A DNA stretch of 64,000 nt. Source: a phage. How positions within the stretch are numbered: position 1 is the stretch's first letter; each line of letters opens with the position of its first letter. Below, one piece after another: positions 3,948 to 57,220 of this stretch. The stretch lies in sequence record OZ346151.1. One strand, 5' to 3'. Made by a program: the position numbers and the translations under genes. The notes under the pieces are model-generated. The model ran no database searches. It saw nothing but the letters and a program-made list of their open reading frames with translations, and was not told where the DNA came from.

Positions 3948-4789
3948 AAATAACATTGTGGCTTCGTGCAGTGATGCACGTCGAAAACCTCTTTAATTGA
4001 CGGGAAGGCTAAGTTGACTTTTACACCTAAACATGGTAAAAGCTCAATATGCTAATCCGCAGCGAAGACTAAAGGGGTGTAGTTAAAATGGCTAGATCAG
4101 TTGAGTATCACGGATATACCGTGTTTGATGATGGAACAATACCTTTATCGAAACGTGATCATACAACAATGTTTTGTTTTGATAATGGTCGAGGTTACCT
4201 TTGCGTAACCATGTTCATCGAGGGGAAGCAGTGCACAAAAGGTGTCCACCACTTGGTTGCTGAATGCTTTGTATCAAACCCTGATCCTGAAAGGCTCACA
4301 TGGGTGAACCATAAGGACGGAAACAAATACAACAATGCATACTGGAACCTTGAATGGACCACCCCTGGTGGAAATATCAAACACGCTTATGATAATGACC
4401 TCAGAGTAAGGCCAGTCGGTGAGTATAATGCCAACGCTGTACTGACCGAGGATGAGGTAACGGAGATTTGCGAACTGTTACAAAGTGGTTTACGACAATG
4501 CGAGATTAGGGATCTTGGGTATCCTTATGAGACGGTCAGAGCCATAAAGCAAAGAAGACAGTGGAAACATATCTCTAAAAACTACACCTGGTAGTAACGT
4601 TCAGAGACTATCGAAAGCATAGCGCCAACATAAATTGGTGCGAAGAAGCGAGTAGAGTAGACCAGCAAGTGCGGTCGAAATGGGAGGTGCCTTGGTAACA
4701 AGGTAGTGAGATAGTCCGATCCATACAGGAAACTGTATGGCTGTGCACGTAATGGTGCGGGGTAGCTTAACGACCTACCTGAACTATTG
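3948..4789 (+). mobile_element. putative group I self-splicing intron in DNA polymerase gene, carrying HNH homing endonuclease ORF
   Basis: Exon 1 ends ...YYH after a U (3947); downstream frame resumes DEYQLQV...GRNWGDCH, restoring motif C (YHDE) and the family A C-terminus; possible P1 pairing exon CCAU with intron GUGG (3958-3961); G at 4789 precedes exon 2; boundaries +/- a few nt. Confidence 0.65.
4088..4594 (+). CDS. HNH homing endonuclease (intron-encoded)
   Basis: HNH motif ...VNHKDGNKYNNAYWNLEWTTPGGNIKH; own start and stop inside the polymerase interruption. Confidence 0.8.
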   Translation: MARSVEYHGYTVFDDGTIPLSKRDHTTMFCFDNGRGYLCVTMFIEGKQCTKGVHHLVAECFVSNPDPERLTWVNHKDGNKYNNAYWNLEWTTPGGNIKHAYDNDLRVRPVGEYNANAVLTEDEVTEICELLQSGLRQCEIRDLGYPYETVRAIKQRRQWKHISKNYTW

Positions 4790-15769: not shown

Positions 15770-15815
15770 TATTTTTTCGGTGGTCCTGGTTGCAGGGCCA
15801 TCTATAAAGATAATT
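15770..15815 (+). promoter_or_regulatory. diverged copy of repeated promoter/operator element
   Basis: TTATTTTTTCGGTGGTCCTGGTTGCAGGGCCATCTATAAAGATAA resembles the 45-bp element. Confidence 0.35.
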
Positions 15816-15842
15816 TATTAACACCATGAAAGGAGAAAGTAC

Positions 15843-16196
15843 ATGATCAGCGGGGCAAGTTTTATTATTGGCGCTATTGCTACGGCTTTAATTGTAAATA
15901 AGATCCAGGATAAAAAGGAAAGAGGAAGTACCGCCCTTGCAGAATATCCATTTTGGGCATTCAACGATAACGAAGATTATATTATAAAGTATAAAAATAA
16001 AGAAGGTGACCAAGTAACACCGCGACCGATCCCGGCTTACAAAATGCAGGAAACACTATACCGCCTGGAGGCGGGTGGCGCAAAAATTGTAGACTTTTGG
16101 GGATACGACCACACAGATCAGGAAGTTATAAAGCGCCGTATCCGGGCTATTCAGGCCAATATTGAAGTTAGCAAGGGGGGAATATATGAAAATTAA
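15843..16196 (+). CDS. hypothetical protein with N-terminal TM helix
   Basis: SD AAAGGAGAAAG before ATG. Confidence 0.5.
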   Translation: MISGASFIIGAIATALIVNKIQDKKERGSTALAEYPFWAFNDNEDYIIKYKNKEGDQVTPRPIPAYKMQETLYRLEAGGAKIVDFWGYDHTDQEVIKRRIRAIQANIEVSKGGIYEN

Positions 16197-16383
16197 TTTC
16201 GAGAAAATTGTAAAGCGCCCTCATGATTCCGAAGAGCTGCCAGAACGCCGCCAGCGTAACAATAAACTGAATAAGCCAAAAAGGTTTGGGAAGATCTGGC
16301 GTAATCATTATGATCGTAAATTGCCCGGCCTACTTTTGGAACGTGAACGACAGGCAGAACGATACCGCCATAAAGACAAATAA
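16186..16383 (+). CDS. hypothetical highly basic small protein
   Basis: SD AAGGGGGG before ATG 16186; K/R-rich. Confidence 0.4.
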   Translation: MKINFEKIVKRPHDSEELPERRQRNNKLNKPKRFGKIWRNHYDRKLPGLLLERERQAERYRHKDK

Positions 16384-16391
16384 CAACCAAC

Positions 16392-16420
16392 GCCCCGCCA
16401 TTGTGCGGGGCTTTTTATTT
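16392..16420 (+). terminator. rho-independent terminator
   Basis: GCCCCGC-CATTGT-GCGGGGC then TTTTTATTT. Confidence 0.65.
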
Positions 16421-16540
16421 CTATCCTACGAATAGCGCCCCTGGTTGGCCCTGTAAGCGCCAAAAAGGCCCCCACCTATGCAATCGCCCCTTTAACCTGA
16501 AAACATCGCCCAGGGCCGTTTCATGGCGTTAAAAATATCA

Positions 16541-24918: not shown

Positions 24919-25236
24919 TTAACGTTCTACAAAAATACCGTTCAGTTCAATAACCAGGAATTTCTGGTCTTCACTATCGTCTCGTGCCAGCACCTCACAG
25001 ACGTATCGGTCATCCCCATCATCATCGCAGTCAAATACAAGACTGAGGACTTTATCATGGTAAACCTTCGCCACTACCGCCTCGTAAGTATTGCCGATTG
25101 TGAATCCAAGATAATCTCCGATGCATTTGACAACAACATGGTCTCCAGCATTTAAGTCAATCTTCGTCATTACTGCGCTCCTTGGGTAATAATACTGTAT
25201 GTAAAACTTTAACCAGAGATGTGAATAACGCCCCAA
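24919..25236 (-). CDS. hypothetical protein
   Basis: Strand-consistent ORF. Confidence 0.5.
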   Translation of the reverse strand: MGRYSHLWLKFYIQYYYPRSAVMTKIDLNAGDHVVVKCIGDYLGFTIGNTYEAVVAKVYHDKVLSLVFDCDDDGDDRYVCEVLARDDSEDQKFLVIELNGIFVER

Positions 25237-25325
25237 AACACACCGATAGCGCTAAAACAGACAAGGCCATCATTAAAGCTTCAGTAAAATCAGTCATTCC
25301 TCACCTCTTGTTAGCCACTATACTA

Positions 25326-25589
25326 TCATTTATCCTTTTCGTCAAGAACTTTTTTAAATCTTTCAGGGATATCTCCCGTTCTTAGATAGTTCATGACCTC
25401 GCAAGGTTCCCACTTGAATTTCTTACAGAGCAGGGCGGCTGAGATTGTTTCATTGCGAAAAGAAAGGATATTAATATCCCACTCTGAGAACCCCAACTTC
25501 CGAAGGGTAGCTACAGAAATCCTCACCGCAACCCAGCAGCAAAAACATGCAACAAACGCCACTGCTACAACCCACATCAGGATGTTCAT
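25326..25589 (-). CDS. hypothetical membrane protein
   Basis: N-terminal TM helix WVVAVAFVACFCCWVAV. Confidence 0.5.
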   Translation of the reverse strand: MNILMWVVAVAFVACFCCWVAVRISVATLRKLGFSEWDINILSFRNETISAALLCKKFKWEPCEVMNYLRTGDIPERFKKVLDEKDK

Positions 25590-32695: not shown

Positions 32696-32923
32696 TTAGG
32701 TGCGGTCTCCATCCCTACTCTCCTTCCTGATATTCTTGTAGTAATCAACTAGGCACATTATTACGATGAAGATAACAACAGGCCAAAAAGGTGCAGCAGT
32801 GATGATGGTGATAAAATCATCAAACTTCACCCTTCGTCTGGACACGATGCATACACCTGTCAAGAATACCGCTGTTATAACGGACATTACCAGGTAACCT
32901 ATTAGCACAACATTTATACTCAT
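32696..32923 (-). CDS. hypothetical small membrane protein (two TM helices)
   Basis: Two hydrophobic stretches, charged C-terminus (holin-like topology, unproven). Confidence 0.5.
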   Translation of the reverse strand: MSINVVLIGYLVMSVITAVFLTGVCIVSRRRVKFDDFITIITAAPFWPVVIFIVIMCLVDYYKNIRKESRDGDRT

Positions 32924-52486: not shown

Positions 52487-52815
52487 GCTTCCTCGTCCTC
52501 CTCTCCTTCATCAGGAGCATAAGCCTTATCTTTGAACAAGACGAGAGAGCAAAGCTTAACATCTGTTTCCACACTGGTGAACATGCATAACCGCTCGCCC
52601 TCAATCAGCTCACAATCCTCTTTTAAAACAGCAGACCATACACGGTCATCTGCGTAATCATCCGTGTACAGGATGTATGAAATGGTGTCATCTTCATACA
52701 ACCGCCACATACCTGTGGCAACAACGAATGTATTTTTTGTTTTAAGTGTCCCTGTTGTGTGATCATCCTCAAAAACAGCTTCCATAATTGCGTTATCTAC
52801 AGCATTTTTAGTCAT
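52483..52815 (-). CDS. hypothetical protein
   Basis: Strand-consistent ORF. Confidence 0.5.
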   Translation of the reverse strand: MTKNAVDNAIMEAVFEDDHTTGTLKTKNTFVVATGMWRLYEDDTISYILYTDDYADDRVWSAVLKEDCELIEGERLCMFTSVETDVKLCSLVLFKDKAYAPDEGEEDEEA

Positions 52816-53954
52816 CAGATTGCTCCAACATTTCTAAGAACGTTAACAAGTTTTGTCTGGTCATTAAATGTCCGCTTCATATACAAACAGTCAAAAATTA
52901 TACTCATCCATTGACCTACGGAAATTCTACGATCAATACCATTGAAGTCAGTATACTTAACAACACCTTTCGGGAACCACTTCTTGTACTGATCAATAAT
53001 AGCCACCCACATCTCCTTTGGAGTGCTGCACTGAGACAGTAGGTAGAATGCTGAGGCATCCCCGAACTTACCCTTACCGATAAGTCCTTGATACGGCTTG
53101 ATGTTGTCAGCAGAGTCACCACACAGCATTTGGTATCCGAAGAACAGCATCCCGTAACCGCCAACCTCTCCATTGGGCTTCATGAAGATGTTCCCCATAC
53201 CGTTATCGATCAGCATAGGGGTTTCCCTTACAAAATCTCCCTTATCGTTTCGCATGGGATCGAACACAAGCCCCGGTAGTGTTCTTTGGTCCTTATCAAT
53301 AGAGATAATAAACTTGTTGAACTTACCTGTTTTTTGGTAGTGGTTCCAACCTTCAAATTGCTGGATAGCTAACCAGTCGTCAGCCTCGATACCGTTGATC
53401 ACTTGAGCATTATACTGCTTTTGGAGATACTGTCTTGCATCTCCAAGCAGCAGTGGTCGAAGAGTATTGTTACGGTTGGCTTTATATCTTTCCGGCATGG
53501 GAAGATCTAGTCTGAAATTACCTGTGCCTCCAAGTACCCCCACGCACCGATCTTCCGGAATACCGAGATAATTAAGGACTGCATTAGCTTTACACTTAAT
53601 TGTGTGCAAGCAGTTCTCTACAGGATCAGGGGTTTGGATATCCAAGACATCGAAATCTTCTCGTGTCCACGGAATAAACTCCTTGCCAGCCTTTTTACAT
53701 GCAGCTTCACGGTTGGTATTCTCAGCTTTTAACCAACCACCAACGGTGTTCTTCTGCCGCCCCCAGAACTCTGTTCGTGTTTTAAACATCTTCTTACGTC
53801 CGGAGGCTTTGTGTGTTACCTCAATTGTCCTTTTTTCACAACTTGCTGCAGCTTGATATGCAACCTGATCGAAGTCATAATAAACTATAGCGTCAGGTTC
53901 AAGAAGATCAGCCAGACAATCTATGGACTCAATAAGTGGATATTCTCTACTCAA
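52815..53954 (-). CDS. flap endonuclease / 5'-3' exonuclease (FEN family)
   Basis: GIEADDWLAI and LCGDSADNI motifs. Confidence 0.75.
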   Translation of the reverse strand: MSREYPLIESIDCLADLLEPDAIVYYDFDQVAYQAAASCEKRTIEVTHKASGRKKMFKTRTEFWGRQKNTVGGWLKAENTNREAACKKAGKEFIPWTREDFDVLDIQTPDPVENCLHTIKCKANAVLNYLGIPEDRCVGVLGGTGNFRLDLPMPERYKANRNNTLRPLLLGDARQYLQKQYNAQVINGIEADDWLAIQQFEGWNHYQKTGKFNKFIISIDKDQRTLPGLVFDPMRNDKGDFVRETPMLIDNGMGNIFMKPNGEVGGYGMLFFGYQMLCGDSADNIKPYQGLIGKGKFGDASAFYLLSQCSTPKEMWVAIIDQYKKWFPKGVVKYTDFNGIDRRISVGQWMSIIFDCLYMKRTFNDQTKLVNVLRNVGAI

Positions 53955-54314: not shown

Positions 54315-54608
54315 TCAAGACTTTTTAGTCTTTCTTGGAGAGCTTTTTGTTGATCTTTTCCTTTTGTGGTAGATTCCAAGTGCAGCGTTTTCTTGGGCGC
54401 ACGTTTTAACAGTTCTCAGAGAAGAACTTTCAGCTTTAGGCAGGTTTAACTCCCACCAACCGAGCCAGTAAAGTTCTGATTCCGACAGCTGCTCAGATTC
54501 AGCCTTCCGATACAATGATTGCATACCTCTAATGATGTCGTCCAGAGGTGTATCGAATACAAAAGCTGTCTTATCGAATTTCTCTTTTACAGGTCTCTTA
54601 GCCATCAA
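54315..54608 (-). CDS. hypothetical protein with basic C-terminus
   Basis: Strand-consistent ORF. Confidence 0.5.
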   Translation of the reverse strand: MMAKRPVKEKFDKTAFVFDTPLDDIIRGMQSLYRKAESEQLSESELYWLGWWELNLPKAESSSLRTVKTCAQENAALGIYHKRKRSTKSSPRKTKKS

Positions 54609-55044
54609 GGTAACCCTCTATCCACGAAAAGTCAGTCTTCCATTCTGGAACTTTACTAAGCTCACGCCACTCTGCAAAGCAGTCTCGGTAATACGCCTCT
54701 GCCATACTCTTGGTGATCTTATTCACCTTAGCCAACTGATTAACTGCCTGAGCATACTTTCCACGGATATTTGCTAACCCAGGATGCACCGATGTGTGAC
54801 AATCCGGGCACAGTGCTATCAGTCCGACAAGCCGGATCACTCCCTCTTCGAAAGTGTAAAGTTCATGACACTCCACTGGGTGTTTGCTGCCTTTACCGCC
54901 GCACACCTCACAAGTGTAGTTGGCTTCTCTATAGCACTTCTTACGTATCTTATCCCACTCACTCTTCTTCACAGCGTTTCGGAGGTTATTATACCAAGCT
55001 GTTTCTGGGATCAGTTGCACAATAAGCCTGCGTTCAGACTTCAT
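54598..55044 (-). CDS. hypothetical zinc-binding protein
   Basis: CEVCG...CHE...CPDCH; start set at internal Met to avoid overlap. Confidence 0.45.
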   Translation of the reverse strand: MKSERRLIVQLIPETAWYNNLRNAVKKSEWDKIRKKCYREANYTCEVCGGKGSKHPVECHELYTFEEGVIRLVGLIALCPDCHTSVHPGLANIRGKYAQAVNQLAKVNKITKSMAEAYYRDCFAEWRELSKVPEWKTDFSWIEGYLDG

Positions 55045-55072
55045 TAAACGTCCGTCTTCCACGTGTTCTCCC

Positions 55073-55279
55073 TCATTCAAAGAAATGGGTGCGAGGGCAG
55101 GAACCTGCCTCACCTTGTTTCACAAGCTCGTAGAGCTCACCTTGACTTGTCTCATAAAGGCAAATACGTTTACCATTGTCCCGATATACATCGACAAGAT
55201 ACGCTGTTTCACCTGCAAACACGACACCACAGGCCAGACATGCTACCATGAACAAAATTGCCAATAGAAAATCTTTCAT
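55073..55279 (-). CDS. small lipoprotein (signal peptide with lipobox)
   Basis: N-terminus MKDFLLAILFMVACLAC with L-A-C lipobox; immediately downstream of endolysin. Confidence 0.55.
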   Translation of the reverse strand: MKDFLLAILFMVACLACGVVFAGETAYLVDVYRDNGKRICLYETSQGELYELVKQGEAGSCPRTHFFE

Positions 55280-55342
55280 GGTTAAGCCCTCCTAAACATT
55301 TTATGAGGTAACAATACCACGTCCGTGTGGTTATGTCAATGA

Positions 55343-55813
55343 TCAATCAAGGACAACACCGCCTGCCTTTTTAAACACCTCGATCAACTTCTCGATCTTC
55401 TGTTCATGCTGACCATATCCAGCACCAGGTAACGAAGCCCAGCGGGAACGGCATTTATGGATAGCCTCGTGGATACGCCCTTCGTCAATGTCGGCGAGAG
55501 CCTTGCACTCACGGATCAGTTGCAACGCAATCTTGTCCTGACTGGCGGGGCCAAAATCTGGCAATCCTAACTGTTCCATGTAGTGTTTAGCAAACTTCTC
55601 CAAAACCTGGTAACGACCAGCAGCGGAGGAGGTAAGTTTAGCATTTAGCTTAACGTACACACCTGGATGCTTGCTGTAATCGCTAAACAGCTTGCCACCA
55701 ACTATGACATCGTATCCCCGATCCTTAGTGGGTTGCCTACCATTATCTGTGCCTTCCGAATATGCGATCATGTCCAAGAAAGCTTTTCGTTGAACATTTT
55801 TATCAAGTTTCAT
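55343..55813 (-). CDS. endolysin, lambda R-like lytic transglycosylase
   Basis: QRKAFLDMIAYSEGTDNGRQPTKDRGYDVIVGG and WASLPGAGYGQ closely resemble lambda R as remembered. Confidence 0.85.
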   Translation of the reverse strand: MKLDKNVQRKAFLDMIAYSEGTDNGRQPTKDRGYDVIVGGKLFSDYSKHPGVYVKLNAKLTSSAAGRYQVLEKFAKHYMEQLGLPDFGPASQDKIALQLIRECKALADIDEGRIHEAIHKCRSRWASLPGAGYGQHEQKIEKLIEVFKKAGGVVLD

Positions 55814-55936
55814 TTTTCATACTCTCCAGTTTACTCATAACTAACACGATCAACAACACTACACAGTGTGGTTATGTAGGTGCCGATTGAAAACCATCAT
55901 TCAATTGGCTACCGTTACCTACTGAACCTTCCTACA

Positions 55937-57220
55937 TCATTCAAGCACCTCCCAAGTGTCTGGGTTAACATTTCGGACGCAGATACCGACAGGGAATTGG
56001 TAATTGTTGTCTTCTGTCCTTGCTTGGTATTTGAAGGTGACAAACTTGCCGATCATTTCCTGCATCCTGTCATAGCTACGCTCCTCGTGCGTGCCTTTCA
56101 TCTTCATTTTAACAACAACACCTTCCTTGTCAACACAGATAAGAACACCTTCATCATTCTTATCTTTCTCAACGTCAATAACTTTCACCTCTGCGTCGTT
56201 GAACTTTTTCCATTTCAATGCTTCAGATGTTCGCTGACCATACTCATATTTACCGCAGAAATTACGCATGATAGTACCTTCATATCCTTCGGACATGAAT
56301 ATACCAACAGATTCTTCGCAATGATCAACTGTGTACGCAAGCTCTGCGTCAACAACCTTGATATGATCAAGCATCAGAGTGGTAACGGTATCCTCTGCAT
56401 CCATAAGATCCTTGCAGCGTCCAGACTCTGTTTCTGGATCCCACCACACCTTGTCGCTAGGAATATCAAAAATGTGATACTCCAGATCGTAGCTACAGTA
56501 TCCACCGTAACGCAAATCATCACGAACAGGCTCAACATCGACAGGAATATCTACCTTGTTGAAGTTTTTGTATGTTGATAAGCCTGCCTTAATTGCTGCA
56601 TGACGGCGTTTTTTATCTGCCTCATAGTCTTTATCGATCTCGGCCTGAATCTCTTCCTGTGTGCGCCACCGTTTAGCAAGAGACACTATTTTCTGCAAAG
56701 GAAGACCATGAATGTATAGTTCCCCATCAAGTTGTTTAATCCCAGTGGTAGAATGGAAAGAACGAAGTTGCTCTAAAAGCTTTCCTTGAATAGGGTAGGA
56801 CTTATTACCACGGGAAATAAATTTAGGCTCACCATTTTGGAAAACAACAAGCAGACGAAGGCCATCTAACTTACGCAAGATCCAGCAAGGTAATTTAAGT
56901 GCCTTGCCACGCTTCAGGTAGTCATGCACCAGCATAGGTAAAAGATCAACACCCTGCTCGCAATCTTCCATGTTTTCAACATACCCCAGACGGACTTGTT
57001 TTTCCCACTTGCTGATAGCCTCAAGCTCGGCCTGTTGCTCAGCTGTAGTCTCGTTGGCACGACCTACGTTTTTAGGTGTACATACCGTCTCTTTGTACTG
57101 CAATTTACCGTCAAGCTTGCCAAACTCTACGATAACCTTTTCGCCATCAGTGAATACTTTCCACTGTTGGTAGCTGCCATCTTTGTTCAGTGCGTACAGT
57201 GTTGTTTTGATTTGATGCAT
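55937..57220 (-). CDS. ATP-dependent DNA ligase
   Basis: Nucleotidyltransferase motif I RKLDGLR; 427 aa. Confidence 0.75.
   Translation of the reverse strand: MHQIKTTLYALNKDGSYQQWKVFTDGEKVIVEFGKLDGKLQYKETVCTPKNVGRANETTAEQQAELEAISKWEKQVRLGYVENMEDCEQGVDLLPMLVHDYLKRGKALKLPCWILRKLDGLRLLVVFQNGEPKFISRGNKSYPIQGKLLEQLRSFHSTTGIKQLDGELYIHGLPLQKIVSLAKRWRTQEEIQAEIDKDYEADKKRRHAAIKAGLSTYKNFNKVDIPVDVEPVRDDLRYGGYCSYDLEYHIFDIPSDKVWWDPETESGRCKDLMDAEDTVTTLMLDHIKVVDAELAYTVDHCEESVGIFMSEGYEGTIMRNFCGKYEYGQRTSEALKWKKFNDAEVKVIDVEKDKNDEGVLICVDKEGVVVKMKMKGTHEERSYDRMQEMIGKFVTFKYQARTEDNNYQFPVGICVRNVNPDTWEVLE

Follow-up and report, generated by a model that had tools for sequence, protein, structure and literature searches.

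The locus between positions 55073 and 55813 is best explained, with moderate confidence and on the basis of sequence comparison, as an endolysin gene standing beside an unrelated gene for a secreted periplasmic mini-protein, for which an exclusion-type role is proposed more tentatively. The two functions would be neighbours by history and not by mechanism. The locus lies in a stretch of 64 000 nucleotides (sequence record OZ346151.1), hereafter the window, which belongs to a Vequintavirus (rV5-like myophage). A megablast search with positions 54500–56500 against phage records gave 128 matches, including 100% identity with Escherichia phages naswa and magaca and 97–99.8% identity with many other Vequintavirus (rV5-like) myophages. 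Positions in naswa were converted to window coordinates by adding 50065. The arrangement in the window is ordinary and its remaining interest modest, as it is the published state of rV5-like phages, whose endolysin and its unusual location have been described, as have the remote position of the spanins and the lack of a recognised holin. What changes is the reading of the small neighbouring gene, which had earlier been taken for a lipoprotein, possibly one of lysis. It appears to belong to a secreted mini-protein family conserved across a whole phage subfamily that is considered for therapy.

The endolysin and the dispersed lysis genes

The 156 amino acid product of the gene at 55343–55813 (minus strand), the ortholog of rV5 gp89 and LysECP26, was identified as an endolysin of the lambda R type, the family of GH104-like lytic transglycosylases. 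Residues 4–154 aligned without gaps to residues 3–153 of the lambda lysozyme structure 1am7_A (phmmer, E=3.4e-56; E about 3e-56 for 3d3d), and a PHROG search assigned the polypeptide to phrog_90, 'endolysin' (E=3e-56). Sequence identity was 62% with lambda R (tblastn), about 70% with lysins of small Salmonella siphophages and 100% with the enzymes of several rV5-like phages. The catalytic glutamate motif is kept as YSEGT, with Glu20 aligned to lambda WSEGT; the Glu of the SEGT motif has been noted as the catalytic residue in LysECP26 (PMC9728275). No Pfam or NCBIfam model recognised the protein. A Kyte–Doolittle scan revealed neither a hydrophobic N-terminus nor a transmembrane, signal or SAR segment, implying that the enzyme depends on a holin. 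These results uphold the lambda R-type assignment of the original prediction, and the protein is almost certainly the true, soluble and holin-dependent endolysin of a phage with scattered lysis genes, as judged from its sequence. Until a holin encoded at another locus opens the membrane, it would stay in the cytoplasm. In the literature rV5 gp89 has been called 'an obvious lysin', with no holin homologue found (Kropinski et al., 2013; PMC3606486), and purified LysECP26, whose identity to the rV5 enzyme is 98%, brought about bulk lysis of Gram-negative cells with a permeabilised outer membrane (PMC9728275). The window enzyme thus shares with lambda R (1am7/3d3d) its length, the gapless 62% identity, the catalytic Glu in SEGT and the lack of an export signal, but it differs in lying outside any S-R-Rz/Rz1 cassette, after the DNA ligase gene in a block of replication genes.

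Pfam, PHROG and the annotations agree on this placement between DNA ligase and nucleases, as had been noted before. Upstream is an ATP-dependent DNA ligase (55937–57220, minus strand; PF01068, DNA_ligase_A_M, and PF14743, OB_2). Downstream of the endolysin gene come the 68 amino acid ORF, an HNH homing endonuclease (54598–55062, minus strand; phrog_5200, E=3.5e-72), two small ORFs and an exonuclease (52815–53954, minus strand). When all coding-strand ORFs from about 46.6 to 60.7 kb were scanned for hydrophobicity, the 68 amino acid ORF alone had a transmembrane segment; one other match was an out-of-frame ORF inside the ligase gene. The scan thus bears out the statement that no holin adjoins the endolysin. 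A search for hydrophobic segments and lipoboxes in the gap between ligase and endolysin and in the endolysin interior gave no hidden holin or embedded Rz1-like ORF. The coding strand holds no ORF in this gap in the window, and phage V18 has no space for one, as its ligase and endolysin genes overlap.

The spanins are encoded elsewhere. In naswa the i-/o-spanin pair lies at 15803–16485, equivalent to window positions 65868–66550 and so about 1.9 kb past the window end, where it adjoins the large terminase gene about 10 kb from the endolysin. The naswa o-spanin combines an LCGC lipobox with a body rich in proline. Its gene, naswa_29 (L003:16198–16485; MRVATLFIVCLLLCGC...), carries the GenBank label 'putative large terminase subunit', and the LL12 ortholog is annotated O-spanin. 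A survey of spanins lists 'rv5' i- and o-spanin families, with the o-spanin family under the separated architecture (PMC6139136), and a study of phage CB7 likewise places the spanin pair of rV5 and PVP-SE1 next to the large terminase and not in a lysis cassette (PMC7344957).

Two candidate regions for the holin are located far from the endolysin. The protein encoded at 32696–32923 (minus strand; 75 amino acids, two transmembrane segments) is 88% identical to rV5 ORF129 and represents the ortholog of gp129, which was proposed as the rV5 holin (Kropinski et al., 2013; PMC3606486). Its earlier listing as a distant holin candidate was therefore reasonable, and gp129 is the only published candidate of the rV5-like group. 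Hydrophobic segments were found at residues 3–21 and 40–58 (Kyte–Doolittle), followed by a charged tail; the topology is ambiguous because the loop between the helices is positively charged. Members of the gp129 family occur in Vequintavirus alone, where the soluble R-type endolysin is also used, and none of the 116 records that contain one annotates it as a holin. The window protein is 100% identical to that of magaca and 94.9% identical to that of naswa, so the window is closer to magaca here, and it does not have the three-residue KEK insertion of rV5. The hydrophobicity scan also yielded two mutually adjacent membrane ORFs as candidate holin or antiholin genes, one of 46 amino acids with a single transmembrane segment (25157–25297, minus strand) and one of 87 amino acids with an N-terminal transmembrane segment (25326–25589, minus strand; phrog_13956).

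Lysis genes would accordingly be dispersed as they are in T4, with the endolysin at 55343–55813, the i- and o-spanins beside the large terminase and gp129 as candidate holin. Both are large virulent myophages with endolysin, holin (a candidate in the window) and spanins in three distant loci and a separated spanin architecture; in T4 the scattered loci are e, t, rI and pseT.2/pseT.3. Apart from the general endolysin class, the window proteins are not homologous to those of T4, and the window holin is a candidate only.

The 68-residue product and its predicted export

The small gene (55073–55279, minus strand), which occupies the position of rV5 ORF 90, is preceded at a distance of 8 nt by a Shine-Dalgarno sequence, AGGAGG, read at 55288–55293 (minus strand). 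Residues 1–22 (MKDFLLAILFMVACLACGVVFA; 55214–55279, minus strand) have the properties of a signal peptide, with a Kyte–Doolittle peak of 2.86 at residues 4–22 and, by the -3/-1 rule, a predicted signal peptidase I site VFA↓GE that aligns with the sites AFA↓T, VFA↓T and AHA↓S of homologues. The remaining segment, 55073–55213 with its stop codon (minus strand), would encode a mature secreted mini-protein of 46 amino acids, which contains the invariant Cys40 and Cys61 and the motif GEAGSCP and is predicted to fold as a four-strand beta meander. Based on sequence rules and family comparison, the product would be exported by Sec, cut by signal peptidase I after Ala22 and released into the periplasm as a 46-residue, probably disulfide-bonded, beta-sheet mini-protein. 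The rV5 record (DQ832317) annotates ORF 90 as 'putative membrane protein'.

Searches of Pfam, NCBIfam and PADLOC returned no match for the 68-residue protein, PHROGs placed it solely in the unnamed family phrog_4641, and a fold search gave no informative match. Homologues were present in over 195 phage records, and their protein clusters numbered at least 200. The family is small, as clustering at 50% identity left 43 representatives in a set of 1.84 billion proteins. Nearly all members are stand-alone proteins of 57–91 amino acids. A profile built from the close family scored distant homologues of other genera at 25–45 bits. Type-I signal peptides (AFA↓T, VFA↓T, AHA↓S, AHA↓G) were present in PVP-SE1 (Seunavirus), KB57 and Mydo (Mydovirus) and P7_Pc (Certrevirus), and likewise in the unclassified relatives W70, SSBI34 and TH18. 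In an alignment of 75 sequences the two cysteines of the mature part were invariant and were accompanied by the core pattern T..L.(D).Y and C.Y.

The original prediction had described the product as a lipoprotein with a lipobox LAC, perhaps an o-spanin-like component or a superinfection-exclusion or receptor-masking lipoprotein in the manner of T5 Llp. Cys14 and Cys17 do lie in the hydrophobic N-terminal segment, MVAC at Cys14 fits the PROSITE-type or relaxed lipobox pattern, and the place after the endolysin resembles a lysis cassette. However, the residues before Cys17 (Cys at -3, Leu at -2) agree with neither the PROSITE-type rule nor the classic [LVI][ASTVI][GAS]C pattern, and Cys14 is so close to the N-terminus that the position rule is violated. 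Neither cysteine is present in homologues with 61–72% identity (P0006–P0010) or in any of the other genera; a strict lipobox occurred in 1 of the 121 homologues retrieved, all of which have a hydrophobic N-terminus followed by A-x-A. The leader of the window's own clade does contain two cysteines, which leaves a slight chance that the window copy is lipidated at Cys14 (MVAC). An o-spanin-like role is further opposed by the canonical separated i-/o-spanin pair beside the large terminase, by neighbours that are an endolysin and an HNH endonuclease in place of an i-spanin, and by a composition that, as stated earlier, is not proline-rich, the 46 mature residues including a single Pro. The Llp-style alternative drops out with the lipobox, which is absent both by the rules applied to the window and from the family comparison, and no receptor-binding protein gene adjoins. 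T5 Llp, phi80 Cor and Rz1-type o-spanins resemble the window protein in being small phage proteins that a hydrophobic N-terminal leader directs to the envelope, but they are defined by a lipobox whose cysteine the window family does not have, and the window gene is linked to neither a receptor-binding protein gene nor an i-spanin. We therefore regard an outer- or inner-membrane lipoprotein, acting as a second o-spanin-like component or as a receptor masker in the style of T5 Llp or phi80 Cor, as highly improbable.

The same features bear on whether the protein could be the missing holin, as a signal-anchor protein that spans the membrane once and exposes a small domain to the periplasm, with a topology like that of T4 T. 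The holin of rV5-like phages is still sought and no other ORF in the vicinity of the endolysin is hydrophobic, but the sole hydrophobic segment of the 68-residue protein is a signal peptide of cleavable type, textbook in the family (AHA↓S, AFA↓T), its C-terminus is a conserved domain predicted to be periplasmic, and it has no charged cytoplasmic tail. Together with a host sigma-70 promoter separate from the endolysin, and with family members that occur without a nearby endolysin and in non-phage islands (both below), this makes a holin scarcely credible. On the combined sequence evidence it is instead very likely that the 68-residue gene forms its own sigma-70 unit and that its product is exported and cleaved and is not a lipoprotein.

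A few family members depart from the stand-alone form. Three proteins of about 510 amino acids (P0138, P0144 and P0155) have two tandem C-terminal copies of the Cys-Cys mini-domain and, by eye, a signal peptide, MORN-like repeats, a peptidoglycan-binding-like motif and a transmembrane segment; P0157 (125 amino acids) is a tandem duplicate of the mini-domain. A papain-like eukaryotic match in the representative search (P0153) was dismissed as chance or a repeat artefact, and, in Klebsiella phage K54lambda1.1.1, a label 'RIIB lysis inhibitor / Dda-like helicase' that overlies the family member was set aside as offset and flagged as a pseudogene.

Promoter, endolysin alleles and gene order

The gap of 63 nt between the endolysin and the small gene contains a sigma-70 promoter of the extended -10 type, TTGACA-17-TGgTATTGT (55311–55339, minus strand), with 10 of 12 matches and the TG present. 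It is identical to P90 of DQ832317, which the rV5 record places between ORF 89 and ORF 90. The 68-residue gene would thus start a transcription unit of its own from a host-type promoter. In rV5, V18, DrSchubert, KB57, Mydo, PVP-SE1, SSBI34 and W70, and so in five lineages (the genus Vequintavirus, Mydovirus, Seunavirus, SSBI34 and W70), a promoter of the P90 form precedes the small gene by about 60 nt; its position is conserved although the flanking sequence differs between genera. In SSBI34 and W70 a rho-independent terminator lies just upstream of the promoter. Sigma-70 promoters are spread across the whole rV5 genome (PMC3606486), and for this reason the promoter does not prove early timing. 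In PVP-SE1 the annotated start of gene 119 (L004:3944–4180, 78 amino acids) falls inside the conserved promoter, and the true start is likely the ATG at 3986, giving 64 amino acids as in KB57.

Comparison with related phages separated the two genes further. Between the window and V18, identity was 94% for the ligase, 70% for the endolysin, 98.5% for the small protein and 97% for the next ORF; with DrSchubert the corresponding values were 57%, 55%, 98.5% and 98%, and a homing endonuclease separates endolysin and small gene in that phage. The endolysin occupies a slot whose allele is exchanged between related phages of the rV5 group at 55–70% identity. The slot (55343–55813 in the window, L016:2501–2980 in V18 and L017:2501–2998 in DrSchubert) has the appearance of a recombination hot spot: the ends of the alleles are conserved (MKLDKNVQ..., ...GGVVLD), and homing endonucleases flank or interrupt it.

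Gene order outside the genus points the same way. The small gene is next to the endolysin throughout the genus Vequintavirus; in PVP-SE1, KB57, Mydo and TH18 it is kept in the block from ligase to HNH endonuclease and exonuclease, and the gene upstream encodes a Band_7/SPFH lipoprotein of 296 amino acids (lipobox LTGC), with no endolysin there. These genera use other endolysin types that are located elsewhere (PMC7344957). In PVP-SE1 (L004:2688–4393) the small gene is bracketed by two proteins of 67 amino acids with two transmembrane segments each, which together with the SPFH lipoprotein appear to form an envelope-directed gene cluster. Homologues of the PVP-SE1 SPFH lipoprotein or of its neighbouring two-transmembrane proteins were not found in the window. 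A shared envelope or lysis-timing role is one possible reading of the small gene's place beside envelope-related genes, the endolysin in the window and the SPFH lipoprotein elsewhere.

Under one form of this reading the mini-protein would be a periplasmic regulator that sets the timing of lysis, either as an antiholin or RI-like sensor of lysis inhibition or as an inhibitor that neutralises any endolysin leaking into the periplasm. It is small and predicted to be periplasmic, like T4 RI, it adjoins the endolysin throughout its genus, and the two-transmembrane proteins and SPFH lipoprotein that flank it in other genera are possibly lysis-related. Its sequence, however, is unchanged while the endolysin allele is exchanged; it is found in genera with another endolysin type encoded elsewhere, and in Yersinia and Hafnia islands whose called or scanned ORFs included no lysis gene; its promoter is separate; and the candidate holin gp129 offers almost no periplasmic domain to bind. 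We consider a lysis regulator improbable. The link between endolysin and small gene implied by the original prediction is accordingly weakened by the separate promoter, the mosaicism of the endolysin alleles and the synteny in other genera. Given its own promoter, the mosaic endolysin slot, the SPFH synteny and the chromosomal islands, the mini-protein likely acts in the periplasm independently of lysis, to the extent that sequence comparison can tell.

Chromosomal copies and a possible exclusion role

The mini-protein family also has chromosomal members in bacteria, namely in Yersinia enterocolitica, where 97 contigs carry one, and in Y. frederiksenii and Hafnia psychrotolerans; the use of a narrower alignment in a profile scan of genome contigs revealed two further chromosomal copies. 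An island next to rsmI/lpoA houses the gene in Y. enterocolitica (L011–L013), with a Phage_integrase gene as its neighbour at the island edge. The island contains YfjJ and resolvase genes together with variable, defence-like cargo, either a DNA methylase and an HATPase_c_3/Ymh protein or an SMC_N/AAA_13 protein. Resolvase and YfjJ genes are near the Y. frederiksenii copy (L018) and a YfjJ gene is near that of H. psychrotolerans (L019); no integrase domain was confirmed at either. No lysis genes were present among the ORFs called or scanned in the Yersinia and Hafnia islands. Directly upstream of the chromosomal mini-protein gene is a conserved ORF of 137–141 amino acids.

An exclusion role is favoured for the mini-protein because of the host-type promoter, the conservation across the subfamily regardless of endolysin type and the capture by islands with defence-like cargo, the island context in Yersinia and Hafnia being only suggestive in this respect. 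The mini-protein would be an early-made factor for envelope protection or superinfection exclusion, by which the cell-wall penetration or DNA entry of an incoming phage would be blocked. This specific mechanism, which is proposed by analogy, is put forward tentatively. It is conceivable, if doubtful, that with phrog_4641 a new class of periplasmic phage-exclusion proteins begins, which all Vequintavirinae would make from a host-type promoter against the cell-wall penetration or DNA entry of competitors, and which YfjJ/integrase islands of Yersinia and Hafnia would have taken up as a backbone gene. The literature contained nothing relevant on the function of the phrog_4641 family or on exclusion in Vequintavirinae. 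If the protein is an exclusion factor, it matters for the design of phage cocktails, in which rV5-like phages could block co-infecting partners.

Alternatively, the mini-protein may be a periplasmic effector with another target, such as a peptidoglycan enzyme, Tol-Pal, a porin or a protease, that conditions the cell for phage replication and takes no part in exclusion or lysis. A predicted secreted, disulfide-stabilised protein that is highly conserved across the subfamily would suit such a role, and the tandem mini-domains of the proteins of about 510 amino acids suggest a generic envelope-binding module. Nothing specific speaks against this reading, although the defence-like island cargo fits a cell-protective role somewhat better than one in phage replication; we regard this alternative as unlikely.

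The closest functional parallel to the exclusion role is T4 Spackle (Sp), an inhibitor of the gp5 tail lysozyme that serves superinfection exclusion from the periplasm. Spackle is a small protein of a large virulent myophage that is exported by means of a cleavable signal peptide, as is predicted for the window protein. The parallel is a possible functional analogy only. No sequence similarity was found (no Pfam match), and Spackle is helical whereas the predicted fold of the window protein is a beta meander.

Among the database records related to the window were about 19 entries named 'Campylobacter phage' (MG0656xx, host Campylobacter jejuni), in which the genes compared were 97–100% identical to those of E. 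coli rV5-like phages. This degree of identity suggests that the hosts of these records are mislabelled or that the records reflect coliphage contamination.
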